Both the position numbers and the translations under genes were made by a program. This document shows, piece after piece, positions 4,409 through 44,671 of a DNA stretch of 52,969 nucleotides (the stretch's first letter is position 1; each line of letters starts with the position of its first letter). Under the pieces are notes generated by a model that saw only the letters and a list, made by a program, of their open reading frames with translations, did no database searches and was not told the DNA's origin. Origin of the DNA: a virus (Duplodnaviria; Heunggongvirae; Uroviricota; Caudoviricetes). The stretch spans positions 1 through 52,969 of the IMG/VR virus record IMGVR_UViG_2718217885_000014, one strand, 5' to 3'.

Positions 4409-5002
4409 CTAATTATCGCTAATCACCATTTCCCTGATTGAACGCAAATCATCCAGATTATTCAGTTGTTCCTTCATCTCGCGCTGGCGTTCGTGGATTT
4501 TAAAGCCCTCCGTCACCATGGCCGCCATCATGGCATCGTTCAGCGCAATAAGTTTCTCCCTGGTCAGTACGACGTTGTTATTATCCGCATCAGTCCAGAA
4601 AAAACCCTCCGGAAGCAGTCCGGCCTGTGCTGTTGCAACCACGGGGGCAAGGCGTGACTGCGAGGTTTTTCCACCATCAAAACGACGGCCATCAAACGTG
4701 AAAATAAACTCAACGTTTTCCTGACTGTCGCGCCATGCCTCAATTTCCCGCTTTTTGGCATCCTTTGCCGCTGCAATAAGTTCCGGCGTGACGGTGAACG
4801 GGGCGATTTCGCCCCATTTCCCGCTTTGCAGCTCCTGCCAGATGTGCTGGCCTGTCGGGGCCATATCATCCTGTATGGCAGTATACAGGGCGAACTCCGT
4901 TTCACCTTCAAATAACACCTCGCAGTCAACCGCACCATTTTCAAGATAATGTGCGTTTCTGATACCTTTCACCGCTCTGATTTTCATGCCTGATTTCCTC
5001 AT
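4409..5002 (-). CDS. tfa: tail fibre assembly protein Tfa
   Basis: 197 aa; C-terminal region resembles lambda Tfa (REKLIALNDAMMAAMVTEG); immediately downstream of stf. Confidence 0.85.
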   Translation of the reverse strand: MRKSGMKIRAVKGIRNAHYLENGAVDCEVLFEGETEFALYTAIQDDMAPTGQHIWQELQSGKWGEIAPFTVTPELIAAAKDAKKREIEAWRDSQENVEFIFTFDGRRFDGGKTSQSRLAPVVATAQAGLLPEGFFWTDADNNNVVLTREKLIALNDAMMAAMVTEGFKIHERQREMKEQLNNLDDLRSIREMVISDN

Positions 5003-27572: not shown

Positions 27573-27602
27573 GTAAGCGGCTCGCCAGAACCGTATTGAT
27601 AT

Positions 27603-29174
27603 TTACTGAGAGGTCAGATCAACTTTCCAGGGCAACAGATCGCGTACCCGGTTTGCCGGCCAGTCCTGGATATGCTCAATGACGTAACGCAGCCATTTTT
27701 CTGGTTCCACATTGTTCAGACGGCATGTGCCGATCAGCGAGTACAACACCGCCGCATGTTCGCCACCGCTGTCGGAACCCGCGAAGAGCCAGTTTTTCCG
27801 GCCTACGGCCACTCCCCGTAAGGCGTTCTCTGCGATGTTGTTGTCGATTTCCACCTGGCCATTACTGCAGTACACGTTCAGGCCATCCCACTGTTTCAGC
27901 AGGTATGCGAACGCTTTTGCCGTATCCGAGTGACGCGACAGTGTTTTCATCTGAGTCTGTATCCAGTCATACAGTGACTGCATCAGTGGCGCAGCTCTGG
28001 CTTTTCTTGCCGCCAGACGCTGTTCTGCTGTACATCCCCGGACTTCTGCCTCTATGGCATACAGTTCACCGATACGCTGCAGGGCTTCCGTGGTGATGTC
28101 GGTGGGCACTCTTGCATGCACATCGTGGATTTTTCTCCGGGCATGAGCCATACACGCGGCTTCCGTTATTCTGCCGGATTCGTATAACACCCGGTAACCA
28201 CCGTAAGCATCGGCCTGAAGCACACCGCTGTAACCGGCCAGATGATTCTGTGGATGGACGCCTTTCCGGTCCGGGCTGTACGCGAACCAGACCGCCGGAG
28301 GCATCTGTGAACCGGCGTTACGGTCATCACGGACGTAGACCCACAGCCGGGCAGTCCTTGTTTTACCACTGCCCGGCTCCTGGACCGGGACGGGGATATC
28401 ATCGGCATGGACTTTACCGGGCATCAGCACATACTGGCGCAGGACGTCATACAGCGGCTCCAGCAGTTCAGCAACGGCACCTGTCCAGCGCCCCAGCGTG
28501 GCGCGGCTCAGCTCCACGCCCTGGCGACGGTATATTTCTGACTGGCGGTATAACGGCAGATGGTCTGCATATTTCCCGGTGACAACATGGGCCAGAAGCC
28601 CCGCTCCGGCATAACTGCGTGCAATGGGTTTTGAAGGTACTGGTGCCTGCACGATATGGTCGCACCGGCAACAGGCCAGTTTCGGACGTTGTGCTTCGAT
28701 AACCTTAAAGGCGCTGCTGATAAGCTCCAGTTGCTCTGACACATCACATCCCAGAGAACTGAGTTCGCCACCACAGGCCGGGCAGCATTCCTCTTCCGGC
28801 CGGATAACCCGGGTTTCACGGGGAAGTGAGGTCGGTAACGGTTTACGGGCAGAAGACTGGCGCAGGGGGGATGGCAGTGCCGGGTCATATTGCTCACCCA
28901 GCGTTTCTGCCATTTCTTCCTGAAGTGCGCTGATTCGCTCCTGTGCTTCCTGTATCTGCCGTTCGGTTTTTGCACGAAGTTTTTCTGAGCTTTTACCGAA
29001 CTGCATACGCTGCAGTTTCGCAACCAGCGCCTTCAGCCGGTTGATTTCGGAAGCATAAGCCGCCACCCGCTGTGAGAGCAGGCGGTTGTATTCAGCCATC
29101 TGGCGGATGGTGTCCTGTTGTGTCTGCAACAGTGCCCGCAGGCGGGCATTCTCATGAGCAAGTGAGGTGTCCAT
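27603..29174 (-). CDS. IS66-family transposase TnpC
   Basis: 523 aa with N-terminal coiled coil, CxxC zinc-finger motifs (CPACGG, CCRCDH) and the conserved IS66 transposase core. Confidence 0.9.
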
Positions 29175-29193
29175 ATCCTCACTTTACATCGGG

Positions 29194-29541
29194 TTATATG
29201 CGGATTCCAGCGCGTTCCGTTCGTTTCGGGTGCTTCCAGTTGATGCCCTCAAGAAGCATGGACAACTGAGCCGGAGTAAGGTGAACCTTTCCATCGCGGG
29301 TGACCGGCCAGACGAAGCGGCCCCGCTCCAGGCGTTTGGTGAAGAGGCACAGTCCGTCGCTGTCAGCCCACAACACTTTTATCTGGTCACCCCGGCGTCC
29401 GCGGAAGATGAACAGATGCCCGGAGAACGGGTCATCCTTCAGGACGTTCTGAACTTTTGATGCCAGGCCGTTAAAACCATTTCGCATGTCGGTGATACCG
29501 GCAACCAGCCAGATACGTGAACCGGCAGGGAGAGATATCAT
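29194..29541 (-). CDS. IS66-family accessory protein TnpB
   Basis: 115 aa, MISLPAGSRIWLVAGITDMRNGFNGLASKVQ..., typical IS66 orf2 product. Confidence 0.9.
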   Translation of the reverse strand: MISLPAGSRIWLVAGITDMRNGFNGLASKVQNVLKDDPFSGHLFIFRGRRGDQIKVLWADSDGLCLFTKRLERGRFVWPVTRDGKVHLTPAQLSMLLEGINWKHPKRTERAGIRI

Positions 29542-30191
29542 CAGTGGCTGCTCCCTTTCATTTCGCGGATAAGTGTCTGTAATAACGCCGGTGTCAGTTC
29601 ACCTTTCAGCCTGAGAGTTCCGGCCGGCAGAACCAGCTCGCAGCACAGACTGTCTGGCAGTGTATTTATCTGTTCAGGTATCTGCACTGGTGCCGGGATT
29701 TTATTATCCGGCTCCGGAGTTAACGTCACGGGAAGTAGCGATGTTTCATGTTCGCCGGGCGGCTGCAGGCCGCCGTTACGCCAGAGATGCCGCCAGTTAA
29801 AGAGCAGGTTATCGTTGATTCCGTTCTCACGAGCTATTTGTGCGACACAGGCACCGGGTAAAAGAGTCCGCTGAACAAGTCTCCATTTAAACTCCGGTGA
29901 AAATCGGTTCCGGCGGGGTTTCTCTGCTTTCACAGGCTGAGTCACGGTCGGGGTTGAAGGATATCGCCCCGGGAAAAGAGCCCGGGCCAGTTGCCCGCAG
30001 GAATATTCACCGGAAAGGGGCCAGTCAGTGAATACCTGGTGAAATCGCCTCACCAGAGAAAAAATGGCGGTTTTGCTGACACCAGTCTGCGCAGAAATGC
30101 GCGGGTACGACAGTGACTCGTCAAATCTCAGCTGTAGCACACGCAGGATCAATTCCGGATTATCTGCCAATACCGCCTTTCGTGCATTCAT
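29541..30191 (-). CDS. IS66-family accessory protein TnpA (orf1)
   Basis: 216 aa; position and size typical of IS66 orf1; stop/start overlap with tnpB. Confidence 0.85.
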   Translation of the reverse strand: MNARKAVLADNPELILRVLQLRFDESLSYPRISAQTGVSKTAIFSLVRRFHQVFTDWPLSGEYSCGQLARALFPGRYPSTPTVTQPVKAEKPRRNRFSPEFKWRLVQRTLLPGACVAQIARENGINDNLLFNWRHLWRNGGLQPPGEHETSLLPVTLTPEPDNKIPAPVQIPEQINTLPDSLCCELVLPAGTLRLKGELTPALLQTLIREMKGSSH

Positions 30192-30276
30192 CTTAAATGT
30201 CCTTTTACTGCGAAAATGGACATTAGTATCGGAAACAGGAAAGGGAGGCGAAAGACGGTTTAAATGATGCGCTTAC

Positions 30277-33089: not shown

Positions 33090-33511
33090 AGGTACTGCTC
33101 CAGTGGTAGCTGCAGCGCCTGAGCAATTTTCTTCAGTTGCGCTTCTTCATCCGGGCCAATGCCGTCCTGGTCAGCGATATCCAGACACAGGCACAGCACA
33201 TTAACTGCGTCATCAGTACCGGCAACATCAGCCAGCTGACGAAGGGCTTCAGCATTGGCAGAGCGCGGCGACGCTTCATAACGGGCGCGGATATTTGCAC
33301 TCATTTGTGCAATCTCACCGGAGAACGGCGCAAAGGCAGGAAGTGCTGCAATGGTTTTCTCCAGTACCGCGATTTCTTTCGCGTCACAGGTGTCGTCAGC
33401 GTATGCAATGGAATACGCACCCCAGACGGTCGCCTCCACTGCGTCGCGGTTCTCCATCTTCTTCACTTCGGTAATGGCCTTGCGAGTTTTCTTTTTGAAA
33501 ATACCAAACAT
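33086..33511 (-). CDS. TerB-like (tellurite-resistance TerB / DjlA N-domain fold) protein
   Basis: 141 aa with TerB-like pattern (acidic helices, LDIADQDGIGPDEEAQLKKIAQALQL); located between the late tRNA genes and the holin. Confidence 0.55.
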   Translation of the reverse strand: MFGIFKKKTRKAITEVKKMENRDAVEATVWGAYSIAYADDTCDAKEIAVLEKTIAALPAFAPFSGEIAQMSANIRARYEASPRSANAEALRQLADVAGTDDAVNVLCLCLDIADQDGIGPDEEAQLKKIAQALQLPLEQYL

Positions 33512-33685
33512 CGTGACTTTTCCTTTTAGTGGGTGAGCCTGCGCCCGGGGGTGACCAGCCCACAGAGAAAGTCACACTGACCATCCCGTAAGCTCACCCC
33601 TGAAAGGCTCTGTGGTTTTTGATATGCGCCGGGCGTGGCGCGGATACAAAAAAGGCCCGCCAAAGCGAGCCGGGAAAAATAAGTC

Positions 33686-33762
33686 TGGCGCGTTGTACTG
33701 GATTCGAACCAGTGACCGATTGCTTAGAAGGCAATTGCTCTGTCCGACTGAGCTAACAACGC
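33686..33762 (-). tRNA. tRNA-Arg (anticodon UCU)
   Basis: 77-nt cloverleaf folded by hand: acceptor GCGTTGT/ACAACGC, D-arm GCTC/GAGC, anticodon stem ATTGC/GCAAT with loop CTTCTAA, T-loop TTCGAAT, encoded CCA. Confidence 0.8.
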
Positions 33763-33979: not shown

Positions 33980-35038
33980 TCATCCGTTCTGACTGACTAA
34001 ATCCTGAACTTCCTTGACCGTCTGCTCAAAACGCTCAGTCTCCAGCTCAACGCCAATTGCACGACGTCCCAGCGCCATCGCTGCTTTGACCGTCGAACCC
34101 GACCCCATGAAAAAATCTGCAACCAGATCTCCCGGACGACTGCTTGCGCTGATTATCTGCTGCAACATTTCTGCCGGTTTTTCGCACGGATGTTTCCCGG
34201 GATAGTACTGCACCGGTTTATGCATCCACACATCGGTGTACGGCACCTGCACAGTCACACCGAAATACCGCCGCAAATTTTTATATTCTCTCAGCAGTTC
34301 CGTATACTGCCGGTTCAGTTCACTGTATGTGCTGACCAGCTGGTGGTGTGGCTGCTCCAGTTCACCGCGCTGATGTTTTTCTGCTGCAACACGCGCAAAC
34401 AACGCCTGCAATTTGTTGTAATCAGCTTCGTTCGGTAACTGCCACTGACTGGTACCAAACCAGTGCGAAGCCATGTTTTTCTTTCCGGTGGCTTCCGCTA
34501 TCTGTTTTGACGTTATTCCCAGTTCGGCACGAGCATCCCTGAAATACGATATCAGCGGTGCCATTATGTGCTGTTTGAGTTCCCTTTCTTTTGCCGCATA
34601 GCCGTCACTTTTGCCGCGATATGGCCCCTGGTAATGTTCAGCAAACAGAACGCGCTCTGTGGCAGGAAAATATGCGCGCAGACTTTCTTTATTACACCCA
34701 TTCCAACGTCCAGACGGCTTCGCCCAGATGATATGGTTAAGCACGTTGAAACGTTCACGCATCATGATCTCAATATCAGATGCCAGGCGATGCCCACAGA
34801 ACAGGTAAAGGCTTCCGGCAGGTTTCAACACCCGCCAGAACTGGGCCAGACAGTGGTCCAGCCACTTAAGATAATCTTCGTCCCCTTTCCACTGATTGTC
34901 CCAACCGTTGGGTTTCACCTTGAAGTAAGGCGGATCGGTAACAATCAGGTCAATGGAATCATCAGGCAGGGACTGAATAAAATGCAGGCAATCAGCGTTG
35001 ATTAAATCAACACTGTTTATTTTTACAGTATTTTTCAT
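33980..35038 (-). CDS. DNA methyltransferase (N6-adenine/N4-cytosine family, beta-class), no adjacent endonuclease
   Basis: 352 aa; catalytic DPPY motif near N-terminus (LIVTDPPYF) and AdoMet-binding FxGxG near C-terminus (DFFMGSGST). Confidence 0.85.
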   Translation of the reverse strand: MKNTVKINSVDLINADCLHFIQSLPDDSIDLIVTDPPYFKVKPNGWDNQWKGDEDYLKWLDHCLAQFWRVLKPAGSLYLFCGHRLASDIEIMMRERFNVLNHIIWAKPSGRWNGCNKESLRAYFPATERVLFAEHYQGPYRGKSDGYAAKERELKQHIMAPLISYFRDARAELGITSKQIAEATGKKNMASHWFGTSQWQLPNEADYNKLQALFARVAAEKHQRGELEQPHHQLVSTYSELNRQYTELLREYKNLRRYFGVTVQVPYTDVWMHKPVQYYPGKHPCEKPAEMLQQIISASSRPGDLVADFFMGSGSTVKAAMALGRRAIGVELETERFEQTVKEVQDLVSQNG

Positions 35039-38106: not shown

Positions 38107-38922
38107 TCAGTGAACGGTATCGAGCAGCTTTAACAGCTCAGGGAATCGGGATTCGAAGAAATGCGGCTGCGTCTCGCGCGGATTTGCAGGACTGGTGATG
38201 TTCTTGCCGAACATGCAGCCTTTCGCCGTCAGCGACCAGAATTTTTTGATGTTGTTAATCGCGGTACGGCTGTATCGTTCGCGTTGTTCAACGATCCCCA
38301 GCTTCGCCATCTGGTGATATGCCTGATTAGCCGTCAGGCGGATACCATACTGCTTCAGCAGTGCACTCAGCGACAGCGTAGGGCGGCTTGAACCATCTGG
38401 CGCATCAGCAGGTGCATCAATGGCATAGATCGGCATAAGTTCAGGAAGACCTGCTACCTTTGATAATTTCTGGTATGCACCAAGTTTCGAGGAGTTTGAC
38501 AGATTTAGAGTCTTTGCTGCTGATTCAAGCAGAATGACCCCGGATTTAATTTTGTCGGATGTGGTTTCTTCTGGTGATGAATTATGAAGCGCATCAAAAG
38601 TACGTATCACTTTTAAGCTGAATGCCGGGCTGATCCACATTGCATATGCATAGACCAGCTCTTTACAGACATACGTCCCACCATTGCGCCCCTGAATGGT
38701 GATGACAGGAATACTACGGGAATCTCCCGTAGTTTCTTCTTCCAGTAATTCCACAAGAGCCTTCGTTTCAGGACGACGCATAAACTCGTGAACTTCCAGC
38801 GAACGGGAGGAGCGATTCTCACCAGCGGCAAGAAGAGCAGCTTTCTGAAGGTCGTTAAGACAGTAGTTAGATTCAAAGTACTGGCGCACAGAAACGCCAT
38901 CAATTACAAGCAACTGATTCAT
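38107..38922 (-). CDS. KilA-N domain protein
   Basis: 271 aa from ATG at 38920-38922 with GGAGA Shine-Dalgarno; N-terminus MNQLLVIDGVSVRQYFESNYCLNDL resembles KilA-N domain; track ORF starts 32 codons upstream without a Shine-Dalgarno. Confidence 0.65.
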   Translation of the reverse strand: MNQLLVIDGVSVRQYFESNYCLNDLQKAALLAAGENRSSRSLEVHEFMRRPETKALVELLEEETTGDSRSIPVITIQGRNGGTYVCKELVYAYAMWISPAFSLKVIRTFDALHNSSPEETTSDKIKSGVILLESAAKTLNLSNSSKLGAYQKLSKVAGLPELMPIYAIDAPADAPDGSSRPTLSLSALLKQYGIRLTANQAYHQMAKLGIVEQRERYSRTAINNIKKFWSLTAKGCMFGKNITSPANPRETQPHFFESRFPELLKLLDTVH

Positions 38923-39202
38923 TGGTTTCTCCACAAATTTCGGGACTGCACTCCCTTTTCGTTGATGCAAGATGAACTTACTGCGATTTTTAATAGTTAT
39001 CAAGGATACACTGTTCATAAATACAGTATCTTTAACGAGGTAATACCCAAATTTAGGGTGTTGCTCAATTCCGTTACCGAGTTGCTAATTTGCAACTCGC
39101 TTTTTCGTACTTACTGATAGTGATCTCGACCTTACCTTCCGGGATAACCGGTCCCCACTCCACCAGCATTCTTTTCACCTGTCTGTCGTCTTCCCACACC
39201 CC

Positions 39203-40539
39203 ATAAGCGCTAACTTAAGGGTTGAACCATCTGAAGAATGCGACGCCTCGGTGCCTCGTTAAGACGATGCCTCGCGTTCTTCAATTGCGTTTTGTAGGCT
39301 GTCAGGGATACTGTCCCACGAATGGCCACCTGTAAGCTCCAGATGACCATTTTTGTTATTCTCCACAACGAGTTAGTTCTTCTTTTCGGATCCGGCACTT
39401 CTGGGGGGGAAATCCAGCGATGGCTGGATTATGTCGTCAATTAAAAATGCGGCGAGTAGATTAGCAAATATCCACGCTTTCGCGAGTTCAGGTTCCTTTG
39501 CACGCAAAGCATCCAGGTGCAGCAAACTTTTGAGCCGCTTAAAAGCCAGTTCAATTTGCCATCGCAGACGGTAACAATCAGCCACTTGCTCTGCTGAATA
39601 TTCATCTTCCGGTAATGATGTTAGCAATAGCACATGGCCCGCTGCTTCCAGCGTTTCCGCCTGAACTACTCGTCCTTTTCGACGATTCTCGCTGAGCAGT
39701 CGGGTTTTACTGATTAATGCTTTTTCGGGAGGAAGTGATACGGCAATGAGACGTGCCGGAAAGGGAGCTCCGGCTTTTTTATTACCTGAATTGCCTATCA
39801 TTACAGTGGTTTCACCGTTCTTACCGCAATCCAGCCCGCGCAGAAAACCCATCATGTCAAAGCGCATTCCTTCTGCAGTTAACCAGCGCAATCCTCGCCA
39901 GTGAACCCGGACGATATAATCAGCTTCTCCAAAAGCAAGTGAGCGGATACATTCGGGACGCGAACCGAATCCCCGGTCAGCAATGCGTATCTCGTCTGCC
40001 GTTTGCGCAAATCGGTCCAGCCGTTCAGCGTCTCTGCTGTCGGTTAGCTCAAAATCAGTGAACTGACAGGTATGAGGATCATATCCCATATGTAGTCGCC
40101 ATTCAGCGCTGCCGCCCCCGGGCGCACTGATTGCTGTTCCATCGACAAGACGCAATCTCTTTCCGCTTGTACAACCCGTAACTGCGGCGCGTACAGCAAG
40201 TGTTTGTGCGGCAAGTATGCCAAACCAGTCGGCGGCATTCCGCAGCCGCTTCAGGAGAGCCACGTCAGATAATGTTGCAACGTCATGGAGCTGAGCCCAT
40301 GCAGTGACTTCACGTAATGACATCCCCCCGGGGCCGTAAGCCAGCCCCAGACGTAGCAGAGTTGCAGCATCACGAATTTCGCGGCGGCGGGTTAGAGCCC
40401 CGGCATTACGTGCCGAAGTATCCAGTTCTTCGGGCTTACCAATATGGGCCAGAATTGCTGACCAGTTATCGTGAGAGTAATTCATCGGCACGTTAAATCA
40501 TATCAGGCGTAATACCACAACCCTTAAGTTAGCGCTTAT
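39203..40539 (-). mobile_element. IS4-family insertion sequence (about 1.34 kb)
   Basis: About 22-bp terminal inverted repeats (ATAAGCGCTAACTTAAGGGTTG at 39203-39224, CAACCCTTAAGTTAGCGCTTAT at 40518-40539); flanked by 11-bp direct repeat TCCCACACCCC (39192-39202 and 40541-40551); one transposase ORF inside. Confidence 0.85.
39373..40485 (-). CDS. IS4-family DDE transposase
   Basis: About 370 aa; C-terminal YRLRWQIELAFKRLKS signature typical of IS4-family transposases. Confidence 0.8.
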   Translation of the reverse strand: MNYSHDNWSAILAHIGKPEELDTSARNAGALTRRREIRDAATLLRLGLAYGPGGMSLREVTAWAQLHDVATLSDVALLKRLRNAADWFGILAAQTLAVRAAVTGCTSGKRLRLVDGTAISAPGGGSAEWRLHMGYDPHTCQFTDFELTDSRDAERLDRFAQTADEIRIADRGFGSRPECIRSLAFGEADYIVRVHWRGLRWLTAEGMRFDMMGFLRGLDCGKNGETTVMIGNSGNKKAGAPFPARLIAVSLPPEKALISKTRLLSENRRKGRVVQAETLEAAGHVLLLTSLPEDEYSAEQVADCYRLRWQIELAFKRLKSLLHLDALRAKEPELAKAWIFANLLAAFLIDDIIQPSLDFPPRSAGSEKKN

Positions 40540-40814
40540 GTCCCACACCCCCGCGTGGGTCAGGGCGTCAAACAGCGCCTTGTTATAGTTGTCCAGATCG
40601 CGGATCCGGTTATCCGGAGGAAACAACACGATCTCCACTGAAGCAGGTGCCGACGTTGGTTTCGGCAGACGACGTAACTGCTCAACTATTGCTGCGCACG
40701 CCGCGCTCTGGAATTTTCGCCCCGCCGCGCTTATCAGGCTCTTACCAGCAAACGCCCCTTTGTTGGGGTGTCGCCAGTACGTGTTCACGCTGGGCGGGAA
40801 AGGCAGTATTAGCT

Positions 40815-41141
40815 TCATACTTTCAGGCCCCTCTCATGTAACCAGTGGGTTGCACGCAGCCTGGCGTTTTCCTCACCGGCAAGCAGTGAGCGGATAATCC
40901 CGACCGCCTCGCTGTCGTCGTCCTTCACCGCGGTATGAAGCGTTATCCCCCGGGCCACACCACGCTTTATCGTGATGACGCCTTTTTTCTCCAGTGCGCG
41001 AAGATGCTCCACCGCTGCATTCACTGAACGGTATCCCAGCATGGTTGCCACCTCCTGATTGGTTGGCGGGAAGCCACGTTCTTTCTGGTAAGAAATCAGC
41101 ATATCCAGCACCTGCTGCTGGCATTGAGTTAACGTCGTCAT
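40815..41141 (-). CDS. LexA DNA-binding-domain-only protein (winged helix, no S24 peptidase domain)
   Basis: 108 aa from ATG at 41139-41141 (MTTLTQCQQQVLDMLISYQKERGFPPTNQEVATMLGYRSVNAAVEHLRALEKKGVITIKRGVARGITL), resembling the LexA N-terminal domain; no C-terminal protease domain. Confidence 0.6.
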   Translation of the reverse strand: MTTLTQCQQQVLDMLISYQKERGFPPTNQEVATMLGYRSVNAAVEHLRALEKKGVITIKRGVARGITLHTAVKDDDSEAVGIIRSLLAGEENARLRATHWLHERGLKV

Positions 41142-41629
41142 TAAGCCCCCACGTAATTGCCTGACAGATACCACTCTTCACCCGATGCAGCGCGCTTGCT
41201 GCTTTTCCGTAAGCACCGCTCACGACGCGCCAGAAAATTGTTTCGTTCTGGCTTGGAGTGGCTTTCACGGAATGCCGCCATCCACACCGTTGCAGCACGA
41301 CGAAATAAGCCCCTGGACTCCAGTTCTTCCGCCTGGCGGGTCAGGCACAAAATCACCCGTGGATCGTTAGTGCCGACATAGAAATTGCGCACAGGTCTGG
41401 TTTCACGAACTGGTTGTGGTTCCGGCTCCTGCGCTCTCTCAGTCAGGCGTGGGAAATGTCTGCGTGTATCTCCTTCACAACGGTGAGCCACACGCCCACT
41501 CTGACGTAACTTGCTTGCTGACTGCAGAACGCGCTGTCGTGAGTAACCAGCAAAAGCATCCGCAATGTCTCCTGAAGTACACCCCGGATGGGCTTCAATG
41601 AATTTCTGAACTTCATTCAAAAGACTCAT
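41141..41629 (-). CDS. PerC-family-like regulator with N-terminal winged-helix region
   Basis: 162 aa; central motif ELESRGLFRRAATVWMAAF resembles the PerC/Pch signature from memory; occupies the slot after the replication initiator where lambda has P. Confidence 0.5.
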   Translation of the reverse strand: MSLLNEVQKFIEAHPGCTSGDIADAFAGYSRQRVLQSASKLRQSGRVAHRCEGDTRRHFPRLTERAQEPEPQPVRETRPVRNFYVGTNDPRVILCLTRQAEELESRGLFRRAATVWMAAFRESHSKPERNNFLARRERCLRKSSKRAASGEEWYLSGNYVGA

Positions 41630-42450
41630 AATCCCCCCCTGAATCCTGCCGGGATCTGGCTGTAGTCCACGTTGTCGTAACTGGCTTTGAAGTACGGGTC
41701 CTCGCGTCTGGCTGCAGATACCGCAGGAACTTCCCAGGATTCTTCGAAATGACGATCCGGACCAAAGAACGTGACAGCCTGTTTCACAAATTGTGTGCCG
41801 CTGTTACCCATCGCAGATACCCAGCCCGCGTAGCGTTTCACACCTTCCAGCATGGTTTCGGGGTTTACCCCCTCATTCAAACGGGCTTTCCAGGCTTTGA
41901 AGGCTGCAGATTTTGAATTGCCACCAGCACGTTTGGGATAGGCCAGCCATGCCTGCTCAAACTCCGGAGAGTATTCCGGTCGGTTTGAACGAACTCGCAC
42001 AGACTCATCAGCAGATGCACCAACAGCTATTGGTTCATTGACTGGTTCTTTGACTGGTTCAAAAGAGTGACTGGTTCTGGGTGAATCTCCTGCACTACCC
42101 CCTGGTGCAACTCCTGCACTACCTGGTGAATTTGCTGCACCAGATAGTGAATTATTTGCACTACCCCCTAGTGAATCTCCTGCACCATCAAGATGAAGGA
42201 GATAGATATTACTTGAGTTACCTTTTTCACCTTTCCGGGTGACTTTTTTTACCAGCCCAGACTCACAAAGGGCCGCAATATGATTCATCACAGAACGTTT
42301 GCTAATCTCGCACTGGTCAGCAATATGCTGGTAGCTGGGCCAGCACTCCCCCTGATCGCTGGCATTATCAGCCAGCTTGATCAGAACCAGTTTTCGCAAT
42401 GGATTACCCACTCGAATTTTCATCGCTTTAACCATCAGCTCCATACTCAT
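41626..42450 (-). CDS. replication initiation protein (lambda O-like, N-terminal HTH)
   Basis: 274 aa; N-terminal HTH domain (CWPSYQHIADQCEISKRSVMNHIAALCESGLVKK); low-complexity Gly/Ser/Ala linker encoded by DNA iterons; position after cro/cII-like genes. Confidence 0.75.
   Translation of the reverse strand: MSMELMVKAMKIRVGNPLRKLVLIKLADNASDQGECWPSYQHIADQCEISKRSVMNHIAALCESGLVKKVTRKGEKGNSSNIYLLHLDGAGDSLGGSANNSLSGAANSPGSAGVAPGGSAGDSPRTSHSFEPVKEPVNEPIAVGASADESVRVRSNRPEYSPEFEQAWLAYPKRAGGNSKSAAFKAWKARLNEGVNPETMLEGVKRYAGWVSAMGNSGTQFVKQAVTFFGPDRHFEESWEVPAVSAARREDPYFKASYDNVDYSQIPAGFRGGL
42078..42186. repeat. iteron array (five degenerate about 20-bp direct repeats) inside the replication initiator gene; probable origin of replication
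   Basis: Repeats TGGGTGAATCTCCTGCACTACCCCC, TGGTGCAACTCCTGCACTACC, TGGTGAATTTGCTGCACC, AGTGAATTATTTGCACTACCCCC, TAGTGAATCTCCTGCACC; three further TGACTGGTTC repeats at 42038-42079; AT-rich tract at 42187-42230. Confidence 0.6.
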
Positions 42451-42671
42451 GCTGCACCTCCGAGATGCTTCATGTTTTTTCCGGAGCGAAAGGCTATAAG
42501 CGGCATACTGACGCGGTAATTACGGCCCAGCGGTTCACAAATCACCTTCTGACATTCACGGTCAACCAGGCTAACACGTAGAACATGCCCTGCTGGCGTG
42601 GTGTACCACTGACCGGGGAGAGGACAACGGAAAGTCTGATTGGTAAATCGTTTGAAAATATTCCGGATCAT
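42447..42671 (-). CDS. hypothetical small protein
   Basis: 74-aa ORF whose stop overlaps the start of the replication gene by 4 nt. Confidence 0.45.
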   Translation of the reverse strand: MIRNIFKRFTNQTFRCPLPGQWYTTPAGHVLRVSLVDRECQKVICEPLGRNYRVSMPLIAFRSGKNMKHLGGAA

Positions 42672-43831
42672 TTACGCCCCCTTACCTCTGAAGAGTTCAG
42701 CGACGAATGAATAAGACGGGCAAGAAATGCCGCATCGTTAATTCGGTCATACAGACTTACAGCCAGCGGTGATTCAGCTTTTTCCAGCATGGGATAAAGC
42801 TGCTGCAACCAGACCTGATGAATTGATGAAATGTAGGAATAGAGTACGCTGGCGTTATGTGCAACGTCGCTCGGTACAGCGGGCTTTGAAAGCTGTTTCT
42901 CCATCTGGTTAAAGGCATTGATGTATGCCTCCTTGAACTGGGCTGCACGTTTGCCAGTGAAGCCCATTGCCAAGAACGCGAAGCCGTCGCGGGTGATGTG
43001 GTAGCAAGGAAGTTTGCGAGTACCGCCGTTGGGCTGGTGTACCCAAATTGATGTCTCCGCAAAATTGCGGGCACAAAACTCTGGAGAACAATCCAAAATG
43101 CGGATCTTTTTCAGAACATCGTCATGACGTTTAGAGAAGAAGTCAGCAACAGCCAAAGAAGATGTAACAGCCTGACCATCAACGATGGCAATTTCAGGTT
43201 GAGAGAGGGTTGGGAGAGTAGTCATGGTGACAGCCCCGGTAGTCAGTTTTTCAGAAAACTCACCACATGGGACGCCAATCACAGAGGTGGTGAGACGTAC
43301 AGGGTTGGCGTTACCGGAGACTACCGAACCCGGCCCGACCGAAGTCGGCCCTGTACGCCCCACCATAATTTGGGCGTAGCAATGCTCATGACACGAAAAA
43401 ACCGCATGAGCGCGGTTATGCTCAGTAATCAATTTCAGGACGCCAATCCCGGCACCCGTTTTATAAGGTGCCTGAACAGTGTAACGTCCCGGAATGGCAG
43501 AATCAATGTGCTGGTGGTCCTTCACACTCAACAAAATCACGCCTGAATTTCCACAAAGGACTAAAGCACTCATGCGGGTAGTCTTTGCGAAGATAGATAA
43601 CGCGCTGTGTATCTGGTTCCCAACGAATAACATGGACATAAAGCCCTCTTCCGTCACGAAACCAGCGGTTAAGTTCCTGCACAACTCGCCCCCCACAGTC
43701 AGGTAAAGTTCTCTGTGGTTACTTACAGCCAGGTGATTTGGTAATCTGCATTCATGCCGTAACAACAGGAGTTCAGCGACGCTGACCACCAGCTGTTGCG
43801 ACAAACGGTTATTTGCCGTTAAACTGTTCAT
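42668..43831 (-). CDS. Rha-family phage regulatory protein with about 200-aa N-terminal extension (possible alternative start at 43225)
   Basis: 387-aa ORF; residues from about 203 (MTTLPTLSQPEIAIVDGQAVTSSLAVADFFSKRHDDVLKKIRILDC) resemble the Phage_pRha domain; start ATG overlaps the stop of the upstream gene, supporting the long form; ATG at 43223-43225 would give 185 aa. Confidence 0.6.
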   Translation of the reverse strand: MNSLTANNRLSQQLVVSVAELLLLRHECRLPNHLAVSNHRELYLTVGGELCRNLTAGFVTEEGFMSMLFVGNQIHSALSIFAKTTRMSALVLCGNSGVILLSVKDHQHIDSAIPGRYTVQAPYKTGAGIGVLKLITEHNRAHAVFSCHEHCYAQIMVGRTGPTSVGPGSVVSGNANPVRLTTSVIGVPCGEFSEKLTTGAVTMTTLPTLSQPEIAIVDGQAVTSSLAVADFFSKRHDDVLKKIRILDCSPEFCARNFAETSIWVHQPNGGTRKLPCYHITRDGFAFLAMGFTGKRAAQFKEAYINAFNQMEKQLSKPAVPSDVAHNASVLYSYISSIHQVWLQQLYPMLEKAESPLAVSLYDRINDAAFLARLIHSSLNSSEVRGRK

Positions 43832-44379
43832 GCGTTAGTTTCTCCACAGACACAAAACGCCACGACGCCCGGAGCTGCACACTCGCGGGCGTCACTCTTT
43901 TCTGGAGCGCAAAAGATTTTGTAGACCAGTGCTGCATGCTCCTGGAGCTTCGAAATTGACAGATACAACTCATCATTAATTGCTGTCTGCTCGTGTGGCT
44001 CCACTACCCCATCTTCGATTGCCGAACGAATCTGCTTTGAGTAACTCCCGATCTGTTCGATGACTTCCAGCAGGCGCTGGTTTATATCGGCGTTCTCTAC
44101 TTCCTCAATTTCAGGAAGCGATACGAACACCCCACCAGCAGACTGTGCGACAGCATCCGCAATGTAGTGAGTGCCAGCTGCGCGCTGTAAAACCATTGCC
44201 CATCCCAGCGGGAAAATCTGATCGCCATCGGCACGAAGGCGGTTAAATAATGCGTTCTCTGTTACATCCAGCCAGTCAGCAGCTTCAGCGTAACCACCCG
44301 GCAACGCCGCGATAGTTTTTCTGACAGCTTTCACGTACCACTCAGGCTGTTTTTCTACTTTCCAGTGATGCTTACCCAC
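43828..44379 (-). CDS. hypothetical early protein in the cII position (YdaT-like, tentative)
   Basis: Proposed GTG start at 44377-44379 with GAGGAG Shine-Dalgarno 6 nt upstream; track ORF extends to 44490 overlapping cro; family assignment is a guess from position. Confidence 0.5.
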   Translation of the reverse strand: MGKHHWKVEKQPEWYVKAVRKTIAALPGGYAEAADWLDVTENALFNRLRADGDQIFPLGWAMVLQRAAGTHYIADAVAQSAGGVFVSLPEIEEVENADINQRLLEVIEQIGSYSKQIRSAIEDGVVEPHEQTAINDELYLSISKLQEHAALVYKIFCAPEKSDARECAAPGVVAFCVCGETNA

Positions 44380-44407
44380 GGTTAACTCCTCGTTTCTGTG
44401 GTTACGT

Positions 44408-44671
44408 TTACGCAACTGAACCGCTAACTTTTGAATAGCACTCTGGTAATCCATCATTTGGATTTGGATAAATATCAGGACGCAGCTCATGGGGGGTTAC
44501 GGACCAGTTCCCCAGCTCACAAAGTTGTAAAACTCGTTCCGACGGGACTTGATTGTTAATTACCCAATTAGCGACAGATTGAGTAGATTTAAAACCAAAG
44601 CGACGAGCTACTTCAGATAAAGACTTTCCCGCAGCCTTTACTGCTTTCTCGGTGTAGTTTTGAGATGACAT
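44408..44671 (-). CDS. cro: Cro-like HTH repressor
   Basis: 87 aa; HTH (LSEVARRFGFKSTQSVANWV); GAGGAG Shine-Dalgarno; divergent from cI across an operator/promoter region. Confidence 0.8.
   Translation of the reverse strand: MSSQNYTEKAVKAAGKSLSEVARRFGFKSTQSVANWVINNQVPSERVLQLCELGNWSVTPHELRPDIYPNPNDGLPECYSKVSGSVA

Follow-up and report, generated by a model that had tools for sequence, protein, structure and literature searches.

Introduction

The closest described relatives of the locus considered here are orf38–orf43 of the Shigella phage SfV and the yfdO-yfdN-yfdM genes of CPS-53/KpLE1 in Escherichia coli K-12, which have the same gene order and encode proteins that are 96–100% identical to those of the locus. 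The locus itself is the early-right operon of a lambdoid prophage contained in a 52,969-nt stretch of DNA (IMG/VR record IMGVR_UViG_2718217885_000014; "the window" hereafter denotes this whole stretch), in which a replication initiator is directly followed by a PerC-like protein and by a LexA DNA-binding-domain protein that has no protease domain. The order shared with SfV is orf74, initiator, PerC-like gene, (Dam), LexA-domain gene, RusA, KilA-N gene, DUF968, and Q. Unlike SfV, the window has no Dam between the two regulators (as in Ayreon and 7 of 80 IMG/VR relatives), carries IS421 in rusA and, upstream of the KilA-N gene, an extra ~130-nt intergenic stretch that contains an SOS box, and has a late region that is lambda-like rather than SfV-like.

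A second kind of module, known from Klebsiella, Citrobacter, and E. coli, combines an initiator that is 68–84% identical to that of the window with DnaC-like and DnaB-like genes, with RusA or Q downstream. These modules are comparable to the gene 18/12 pair of P22 and to the Eru2/Eru3 modules of Shiga toxin (Stx) phages. By contrast, the window has neither the helicase nor the loader, has regulators instead, and differs in the last ~25 residues of its initiator. The Eru classification of Stx phages has no such initiator-only type (PMC8044961), and the term "initiator-solo" was not found in our literature search.

Here, we report sequence comparisons that place the PerC-like and LexA-like regulators in the position taken by the helicase/loader cassette in sister phages. 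This cassette swap, a motif in the initiator tail that is linked to the cassette, and a set of SOS boxes are what the present analysis adds. The layout itself is already known: the module is widespread and annotated, in phage genomes published since SfV, and RefSeq (NZ_CP015228) already gives the names "PerC family transcriptional regulator" and "LexA family transcriptional regulator". An initial annotation, made from the letters of the window, had taken the arrangement to be unusual; it is in fact common. We favor, with a probability of roughly 0.55, the reading that this is an SfV/CPS-53-type operon that depends on host DnaB/DnaC loading, with a PerC-like transcription modulator and a LexA-like protein that re-occupies SOS boxes, neither of them replicative.

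Results

The helicase-loader slot

No lambda P or DnaC-type loader was found after the initiator or elsewhere in the prophage, in agreement with the initial annotation, which had seen none in the early region. Pfam scans of 20 open reading frames (ORFs) in the early region and nearby gave no match to Phage_lambda_P, IstB_IS21, DnaB_C, or Bac_DnaA; the RefSeq annotation of the entire prophage lists neither a loader nor a helicase; and a Walker-A regular expression, applied to every stop-to-stop segment of at least 50 aa in all frames, returned two chance matches only. As positive controls, the lambda P model (PF06992) detected the P homologue of Edwardsiella phage EPP-1 at 3.8e-58, and IstB_IS21 and DnaB_C searches recovered both domains in sister loci. 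What lies directly after the initiator is the pair of PerC-like and protease-less LexA proteins, whose coordinates and sizes had been given exactly and which produced strong matches to the PerC and LexA_DNA_bind profiles; neither matched a replication loader family. The start and stop codons of the initiator, PerC-like, LexA-like, and RusA genes overlap (by 4, 1, and 4 nt, respectively, from the gene coordinates), hence the four genes are almost certainly co-translated.

That the position is a helicase-loader slot, also proposed at the outset, is apparent from homologous initiators, which have DnaC-like and DnaB-like genes at exactly that place. In the sister loci from Klebsiella, Raoultella, Citrobacter, and E. 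coli, an IstB/DnaC-like gene (292–303 aa) and a DnaB_C helicase gene (451–466 aa) directly follow the initiator, and the E. coli sister loci with this cassette keep the same upstream Rha/Ash gene and orf74. We sampled 80 initiator loci, each from a different species, for their downstream cassette: approximately 36 have a DnaC-like and/or a DnaB-like gene downstream of the initiator, and none of those has a PerC-like or LexA-like gene. orf74 is kept upstream of this initiator family irrespective of the downstream cassette, and is found at 56–59% identity upstream of the DnaC-like and DnaB-like-paired initiators in loci L014–L017.

Since the phage has no helicase or loader of its own, the initiator most likely recruits host DnaB/DnaC. 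SfV, mEp460, and Ayreon, which are plaque-forming or inducible, share the module and likewise have no helicase or loader, so such phages replicate without their own; the reliance on host loading that was initially put forward fits this evidence. The inducible phage Ayreon had E. coli K-12 as its isolation host (PMC5764929).

Of 5426 complete E. coli genomes, 819 contain at least 80% of window positions 40400–42700. At 94–100% identity, the module occurs in SfV (orf39–43), SfII, SfIV, mEp460 (whose copy is annotated "LexA DNA binding domain protein"), Ayreon, 1720a-02, and Stx2c, Stx2k, and Stx2a phages. The homologues in ST64B are 69% identical, and ST64B has no LexA-like gene. Across genera, both regulators are conserved at 65–72% identity. 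We also surveyed the cassette in 80 IMG/VR contigs, all having an initiator with at least 98% identity to that of the window. The order PerC-like, Dam, LexA-like, RusA was found in 55 contigs, the window type (PerC-like, LexA-like, RusA) in 7, and PerC-like, Dam, RusA in 4, while the PerC-like gene was deleted in approximately 3. Phage cdtI, which is said to be an inducible prophage, has the same initiator and tail with just 26 codons of the PerC-like gene left.

Because either gene is lost naturally in relatives, neither regulator is probably a replication factor. The ratio of nonsynonymous to synonymous substitution rates (dN/dS), at dS of ~0.1–0.17, is 0.06–0.27 for the PerC-like gene and 0–0.17 for the LexA-like gene. 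Both genes are thus under purifying selection; they are functional accessory genes. The absence of each gene singly from some natural relatives might also be expected of dispensable passengers or decaying remnants that have no role in the phage life cycle. We give almost no weight to this explanation, given the dN/dS values, the cross-genus conservation, and the retention of the full cassette in 55 of the 80 relatives.

The initiator and its C-terminal tail

The initiator matches Pfam HTH_36 (1.8e-11), with a weak DnaD_N match, and PHROG 270 "replication initiation protein" (1e-88); 5457 homologues were found. Its AlphaFold model shows a confident N-terminal winged helix (residues 1–85), a disordered linker (91–157) that is rich in Gly/Ser/Ala, a 4-helix domain (162–229), and a disordered tail. 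Foldseek aligned only the N-terminal winged helix, with no significant matches, and a comparison with PDB sequences produced noise only. Residues 147–249 also match PHROG 1701 ("DnaD-like helicase loader") and PHROG 9327 ("primosomal protein"). A loader built into the C-terminal domain of the initiator, as these PHROG labels would have it, was considered and rejected, because homologues with the same C-terminal domain still carry DnaC-like and DnaB-like genes.

The linker-coding part of the initiator gene contains iteron-like direct repeats: ~5 copies of a 21–24-nt unit (GGTAGTGCAGGAGATTCAC-like) at 42081–42185, and 3–4 copies of GAACCAGTCA, with a spacing of ~12 nt, at 42031–42078. The number of repeats varies between initiator homologues and is seen in the alignment as variation in linker length. 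By analogy with the lambda origin, which is placed within gene O, these arrays are the probable origin of replication. The initiator also shows the lambdoid O-like pattern in its N-terminal DNA-binding domain, its iterons within the gene, and its place after a cII-like gene in the pR operon.

The similarity of the initiator to DnaC/DnaB-paired homologues ends at approximately residue 250, and the tails beyond this point differ by group. Initiators with the regulator cassette end in ...REDPYFKASYDNVDYSQIPAGFRG, and those with the DnaC/DnaB cassette in ...SGFSEQDYGxxxCNW or ...SGLGxMSDxFG.... The tail peptide ...DYS(Q/R)IP(A/T)GFRG tracks the downstream cassette, not the initiator body. The unrelated gp42 of mEp390 (Phg_2220_C family; locus L006, 4921–4995) has the same tail motif; mEp390 has no loader, and its gp42 is directly followed by a LexA-like gene and RusA. 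The initiators of loci L032 and L063 end in (I/V)P(A/P)GFRG, and each is followed by a DnaC-like gene only. The GFRG tail is absent from all initiators that are paired with a phage DnaB-like gene. As judged from this distribution, the GFRG tail may be a peptide that docks onto a host factor, of which host DnaB is the simplest candidate.

The same observations bear on a different role for the YfdN-type PerC-like protein, namely that of a helicase adaptor that is not an ATPase, comparable to lambda P, and that would link host DnaB to the initiator tail. Its gene takes the exact position of the DnaC-like gene of sister phages and overlaps the initiator stop codon by 4 nt, the initiator tail changes along with the downstream cassette, and a P-like loader is possible without Walker A, which lambda P also lacks. 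We nevertheless consider an adaptor very unlikely: cdtI retains the initiator and tail with only the 26-codon remnant, 3–4 IMG/VR relatives are also without the PerC-like gene, mEp390 has the tail motif and no PerC-like gene, and L032 and L063 combine the tail motif with a DnaC-like gene. Moreover, the predicted winged helix and PerC three-helix fold gave no match to Phage_lambda_P or to loader structures.

The LexA-like protein

The LexA-like protein is 108 aa long from its ATG, or 119 aa if an upstream GTG is taken as the start. It has a match to Pfam LexA_DNA_bind (3.7e-19, 68.7 bits), is 43% identical to residues 1–86 of E. coli LexA, and is matched by PDB LexA chains at 7e-16. The TIGR00498 lexA model aligned at positions 1–91 only (70 bits against a cut-off of 111), and no Pfam match to Peptidase_S24 was obtained in the protein, which ends at residue 108. 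The winged helix (residues 1–70, 40932–41141) is followed by a conserved and probably helical C-terminal extension of ~35 aa (40818–40922), with the consensus EAVGIIRALLAGEENARLRAxxWLHERGVKV, which is kept down to relatives that are 42–52% identical.

Residues S39, N41, A42, and E45 of LexA, which we take to be those that read CTGT (LexA-DNA structure PDB 3JSO), are all identical in the window protein. In an alignment of 12 relatives, S39 and N41 never vary and most sequences retain A42 and E45; nearly all members also retain the LexA wing residues R64-G65. Some members of the family, such as P0086 and P0482, have a diverged recognition helix.

Cleavage of LexA at Ala84-Gly85 makes it bind DNA less tightly and uncovers its ClpXP and Lon degrons (PMC3159453). 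Since cleavage weakens LexA binding (PMC3159453), a stable DNA-binding domain without the cleavage site could repress beyond the reach of RecA. The LexA-like protein is, from its sequence, plausibly a RecA-proof SOS-box repressor. We also considered whether a cleavage site is retained, as a pseudo-substrate or a target of in-trans cleavage, given that LLAGE in the window protein aligns with VAAGE in LexA. This was rejected because the A-G pair is not conserved, and relatives have VG, AN, or TG there.

A fragment of UTI89 (4,997,073–4,999,597) was previously found enriched among over-expression clones that cause filamentation (PMC6206680). It corresponds to window positions ~41100–43800 and contains a Rha-like gene, the initiator, and yfdN2, and runs into dam. 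mEp460 gp46 is annotated as similar to UTI89_C5103, which places the LexA-like gene just outside the UTI89 filamentation fragment. A PADLOC search for a defense or anti-defense role gave weak winged-helix matches only.

SOS boxes in the prophage and its relatives

The motif CTGT-N8-ACAG occurs six times in the window, against ~0.5–0.7 expected. Scoring with an SOS position-specific scoring matrix (PSSM), which was built from E. coli SOS boxes (training-set median 20.5 bits; 0.05 sites per window in shuffles), identified two strong candidate LexA boxes (Table 1). The first follows the rusA remnant at a distance of ~50 nt, with the KilA-N gene ~90 nt further downstream, and is kept in locus L002 and in 14 of the 72 IMG/VR relatives that carry the LexA-like gene. 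The second, in the methyltransferase gene, is conserved at the start of SfV orf48. The KilA-N gene, being the first downstream of its box, may encode a regulator or antirepressor under SOS control. EPP-1 has a 24.3-bit box ahead of a Rha-like gene and then a LexA-domain gene, even though it also encodes a lambda P homologue. Across this phage group, strong SOS boxes are found repeatedly, at three kinds of site.

Strong LexA boxes (21.7–24.6 bits) are also present in the coding region of cI genes of the mEp460/ST64B type, at approximately codons 55–75 (L005 2971–2990, L007 1676–1695, and L018 1496–1515, as well as 28 of 80 IMG/VR relatives). The spacing variant CTGT-N10-ACAG was found five times in the window (at 4871, 5623, 15980, 27957, and 29115), against 0.7 expected and a shuffle maximum of 3. 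We treated this excess as probably due to chance, because all five copies have GC-rich spacers and fall in structural/late genes, and because the test extended over 21 spacings.

It is conceivable, if doubtful, that the LexA-domain protein acts away from SOS boxes, either on a phage-specific operator or through an extension that binds a protein (e.g., a phage regulator, RecA, or RusA). The conservation of the extension in distant relatives points to a particular partner or oligomer, a codon overlap joins the gene to rusA in nearly all cases, the SOS box upstream of the KilA-N gene is missing from most relatives, and P0086 and P0482 are examples of a diverged recognition helix. On the other hand, S39, N41, A42, E45, and R64-G65 are kept in nearly all members, strong SOS boxes recur at the three kinds of site, and the EPP-1 LexA-domain gene lies behind an SOS box.

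The PerC-like protein

The PerC-like protein matches Pfam PerC (PF06069; E=3.7e-8, 34 bits against a cut-off of 22.6) at residues 98–149 and PHROG 1324 "transcriptional activator" at 5e-78, with a sub-threshold match to NCBIfam ANR_neg_reg and no match among PDB sequences. RefSeq calls some copies of the gene yfdN. The protein was modeled as a winged helix (residues 1–60, 41450–41629), a disordered linker (63–84), and a three-helix PerC domain (90–149, 41183–41362), with an AlphaFold predicted local distance difference test (pLDDT) score of ~86–91 in both domains. Foldseek aligned the N-terminal domain with ArsR/SmtB/MarR/BlaI winged helices at a root-mean-square deviation of ~2 Å, with non-significant E-values. 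The architecture is therefore that of the two-domain YfdN-type long form (162 aa), not that of single-domain PerC/PchA–C (~90–104 aa).

The Pfam PerC domain is common to the window protein, PerC of enteropathogenic E. coli, and PchA/B/C of enterohemorrhagic E. coli. Pch proteins, which are also prophage-encoded, are H-NS anti-silencers that displace H-NS (PMC4764244). Compared with these proteins, the window protein has an added winged helix and linker, and its gene lies in a lytic early operon. By analogy with Pch, the PerC-like protein most likely modulates transcription during lytic growth by lifting the silencing that H-NS imposes on AT-rich DNA of the phage or the host.

The initial annotation had suggested that the PerC-like protein may activate the enterocyte effacement locus (LEE). 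In its fuller form, both proteins would be host-directed virulence and SOS regulators, with the PerC-like protein activating LEE through ler and the LexA-like protein reprogramming the host SOS response as its main purpose. Membership of the PerC family, the activation of ler by group 1 Pch (PMC5931665; PMC4764244), and the conserved recognition residues of the LexA-like protein are in line with this. However, in O157 only the 104-aa group 1 Pch activated ler, and the non-group-1 PchD and PchE had minimal effect (PMC5931665, PMC6265319); YfdN, the K-12 homologue, was deleted from the ler reporter strain (PMC5931665). By analogy with PchD/PchE, ler activity of the two-domain window protein is doubtful (PMC5931665). 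Furthermore, the module is common in hosts without LEE (yfdN in K-12 CPS-53; Shigella phages SfV, SfII, and SfIV; Salmonella phage ST64B), hence LEE activation is unlikely to be the main role of the PerC-like protein. Lastly, the location of both genes in the lytic early operon implies expression in lytic growth, not in the lysogen. We conclude that a primarily host-directed function is unlikely, and that "PerC family", when attached to long forms, should not be read as "LEE activator".

Other features of the prophage

The window is 100% identical to the reverse complement of positions ~304025–356993 of NZ_CP015228.1 (E. coli 09-00049), and the prophage adjoins tRNA-Thr and proA in that chromosome. 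The features of the early-right operon and its surroundings are listed in Table 1; after rusA, the operon continues with the KilA-N gene, orf171, DUF968, and Q.

Table 1. Coordinates of the operon genes, repeats, and candidate SOS boxes in the window.
Feature	Position	Strand	Basis or remark
Cro/YdaS-like gene	44408–44671	-	early-right operon
YmfL/CP76 cII-like gene	43828–44490	-	early-right operon
Rha+Ash regulator	42668–43831	-	early-right operon
orf74	42447–42671	-	PHROG 1153; overlaps initiator start
Replication initiator, 274 aa (SfV orf39 / YfdO type)	41626–42450	-	Pfam HTH_36, PHROG 270
Iteron-like direct repeats within initiator gene, linker-coding part	42031–42185		repeat analysis
Initiator C-terminal tail, residues ~249–274, ...REDPYFKASYDNVDYSQIPAGFRGGL	41629–41706	-	tail comparison
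PerC-family protein, 162 aa (YfdN / SfV orf40 type)	41141–41629	-	Pfam PerC, PHROG 1324
LexA DNA-binding-domain protein, 108 aa (SfV orf42 / mEp460 gp46 type)	40815–41141	-	Pfam LexA_DNA_bind
rusA 5' part, 106 codons	40498–40818	-	Pfam RusA, RefSeq annotation
IS421/IS186-type insertion within rusA	~39203–40497		transposase ORF 39373–40491
rusA 3' remnant	~39077–39202		tblastn (both RusA pieces recovered)
Strong candidate SOS (LexA) box TACTGTATTTATGAACAGTG	39009–39028	-	exact CTGT-N8-ACAG; PSSM 21.5 bits
KilA-N domain gene	38107–38922	-	Pfam KilA-N 1.6e-15; RefSeq start codon
Strong candidate SOS (LexA) box TACTGTAAAAATAAACAGTG	35011–35030	-	PSSM 22.3 bits; codons 4–10 of DNA methyltransferase gene downstream of Q

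The IS421/IS186-type insertion sequence (IS) splits rusA, leaving the nin-like region of this prophage copy damaged. An IS66 element (tnpA, tnpB, and tnpC) between the lysis genes and the small terminase gene (window ~27600–30200) is a second hint that the prophage may be defective. The Rha+Ash ORF encodes 387 aa, and RefSeq gives a 321-aa Rha protein and a DUF4222 pseudogene fragment in its place; as relatives encode an intact 385-aa Rha+Ash protein, the 5' part of the window copy may be rearranged. A tRNA cluster (Arg, one "tRNA-OTHER", and Ile) lies at ~33400–33700, downstream of the methyltransferase gene, as in the late regions of Stx phages. It is followed by TerB-family and DUF3927 genes, with no stx genes.

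Discussion

In the reading that we favor, the initiator would act alone by binding the iterons within its own gene, and would capture host DnaB/DnaC, perhaps through its ...DYSQIPAGFRG tail. The two-gene DnaC-like/DnaB-like cassette of sister phages is replaced in this lineage by accessory regulators that are almost certainly co-translated with the initiator. The LexA-like protein, which pR supplies once the prophage is induced, most likely occupies SOS boxes again, beyond reversal by RecA. Its targets would be the two strong prophage boxes and possibly host SOS promoters, and its conserved C-terminal extension may replace the dimerization domain of LexA.

Several points weigh against this reading. 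The isolated N-terminal domain of LexA binds DNA weakly, and dimerization lies in the C-terminal domain, which the LexA-like protein does not have; that it dimerizes via the 35-aa extension is a guess. The box upstream of the KilA-N gene, found in a minority of relatives, is not a universal target of the LexA-like protein, and a simple sigma-70 promoter scan called no promoter at either of the two SOS boxes. The link between the tail and the host helicase is based on just four independent lineages. The PerC match spans only ~50 residues, and the N-terminal winged helix has no counterpart in PerC/Pch, hence the mechanism of the PerC-like protein may differ from theirs. The prophage of the window is itself damaged, with one IS in rusA and IS66 near the terminase genes. 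Lastly, no paper testing the PerC-like or the LexA-like protein was found in the literature. As it stands, the naming of the two genes is routine annotation; we consider an SOS-box binder that cannot be cleaved to be plausible, and the activation of LEE to be unlikely.

A more specific proposal, which we put forward tentatively and regard as possible rather than probable, joins two of these elements: the LexA-like protein would be a RecA-proof surrogate that dimerizes via its extension and re-closes SOS boxes after induction, and ...DYSQIPAGFRG would be a portable docking peptide for host DnaB. If this were true, phage genes controlled by SOS boxes (KilA-N through Q, and the methyltransferase) would be expressed in a timed pulse, and the host SOS regulon would be shut down, including recA and the LexA-controlled antirepressors of rival prophages. 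The tail would then mark initiators that capture host DnaB instead of a phage-encoded helicase.

One initiator family that occurs with its own DnaC/DnaB genes or with none offers a natural system for the study of host-helicase capture, with a candidate C-terminal peptide. An uncleavable LexA look-alike that ~15% of the complete E. coli genomes encode, as do Stx2c, Stx2k, and cytolethal distending toxin (Cdt) phages, could influence the strength with which the SOS response, co-resident prophages, and toxin genes react to antibiotics that damage DNA.

Comparison with known systems

The locus shares with lambda O/P the position of the iterons, within the linker-coding part of the initiator gene, and the operon order cro, cII-like gene, replication genes, nin-like region, and Q. 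It differs in having no P homologue and in an initiator of the HTH_36 family, not Phage_rep_O; lambda O also ends differently.

With respect to host LexA, its N-terminal fragment, and LexA(Ind-), the window protein keeps the recognition residues and, like LexA(Ind-), could not be inactivated by activated RecA (RecA*). Unlike LexA, it has no S24 domain, no Ser119/Lys156 pair, and no LexA dimer interface, and it carries its own extension of ~35 aa. The C-terminus of the N-terminal LexA cleavage fragment is a ClpX signal; the C-terminus of the window protein differs from the one exposed on that fragment. The outcome that we propose, a mobile element that damps or reshapes the host SOS response, is the same as that of GIL01 gp7, which binds host LexA (PMC4551915), and of plasmid PsiB. 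Those proteins contact the LexA or RecA protein, whereas the window protein would be a surrogate repressor on DNA.

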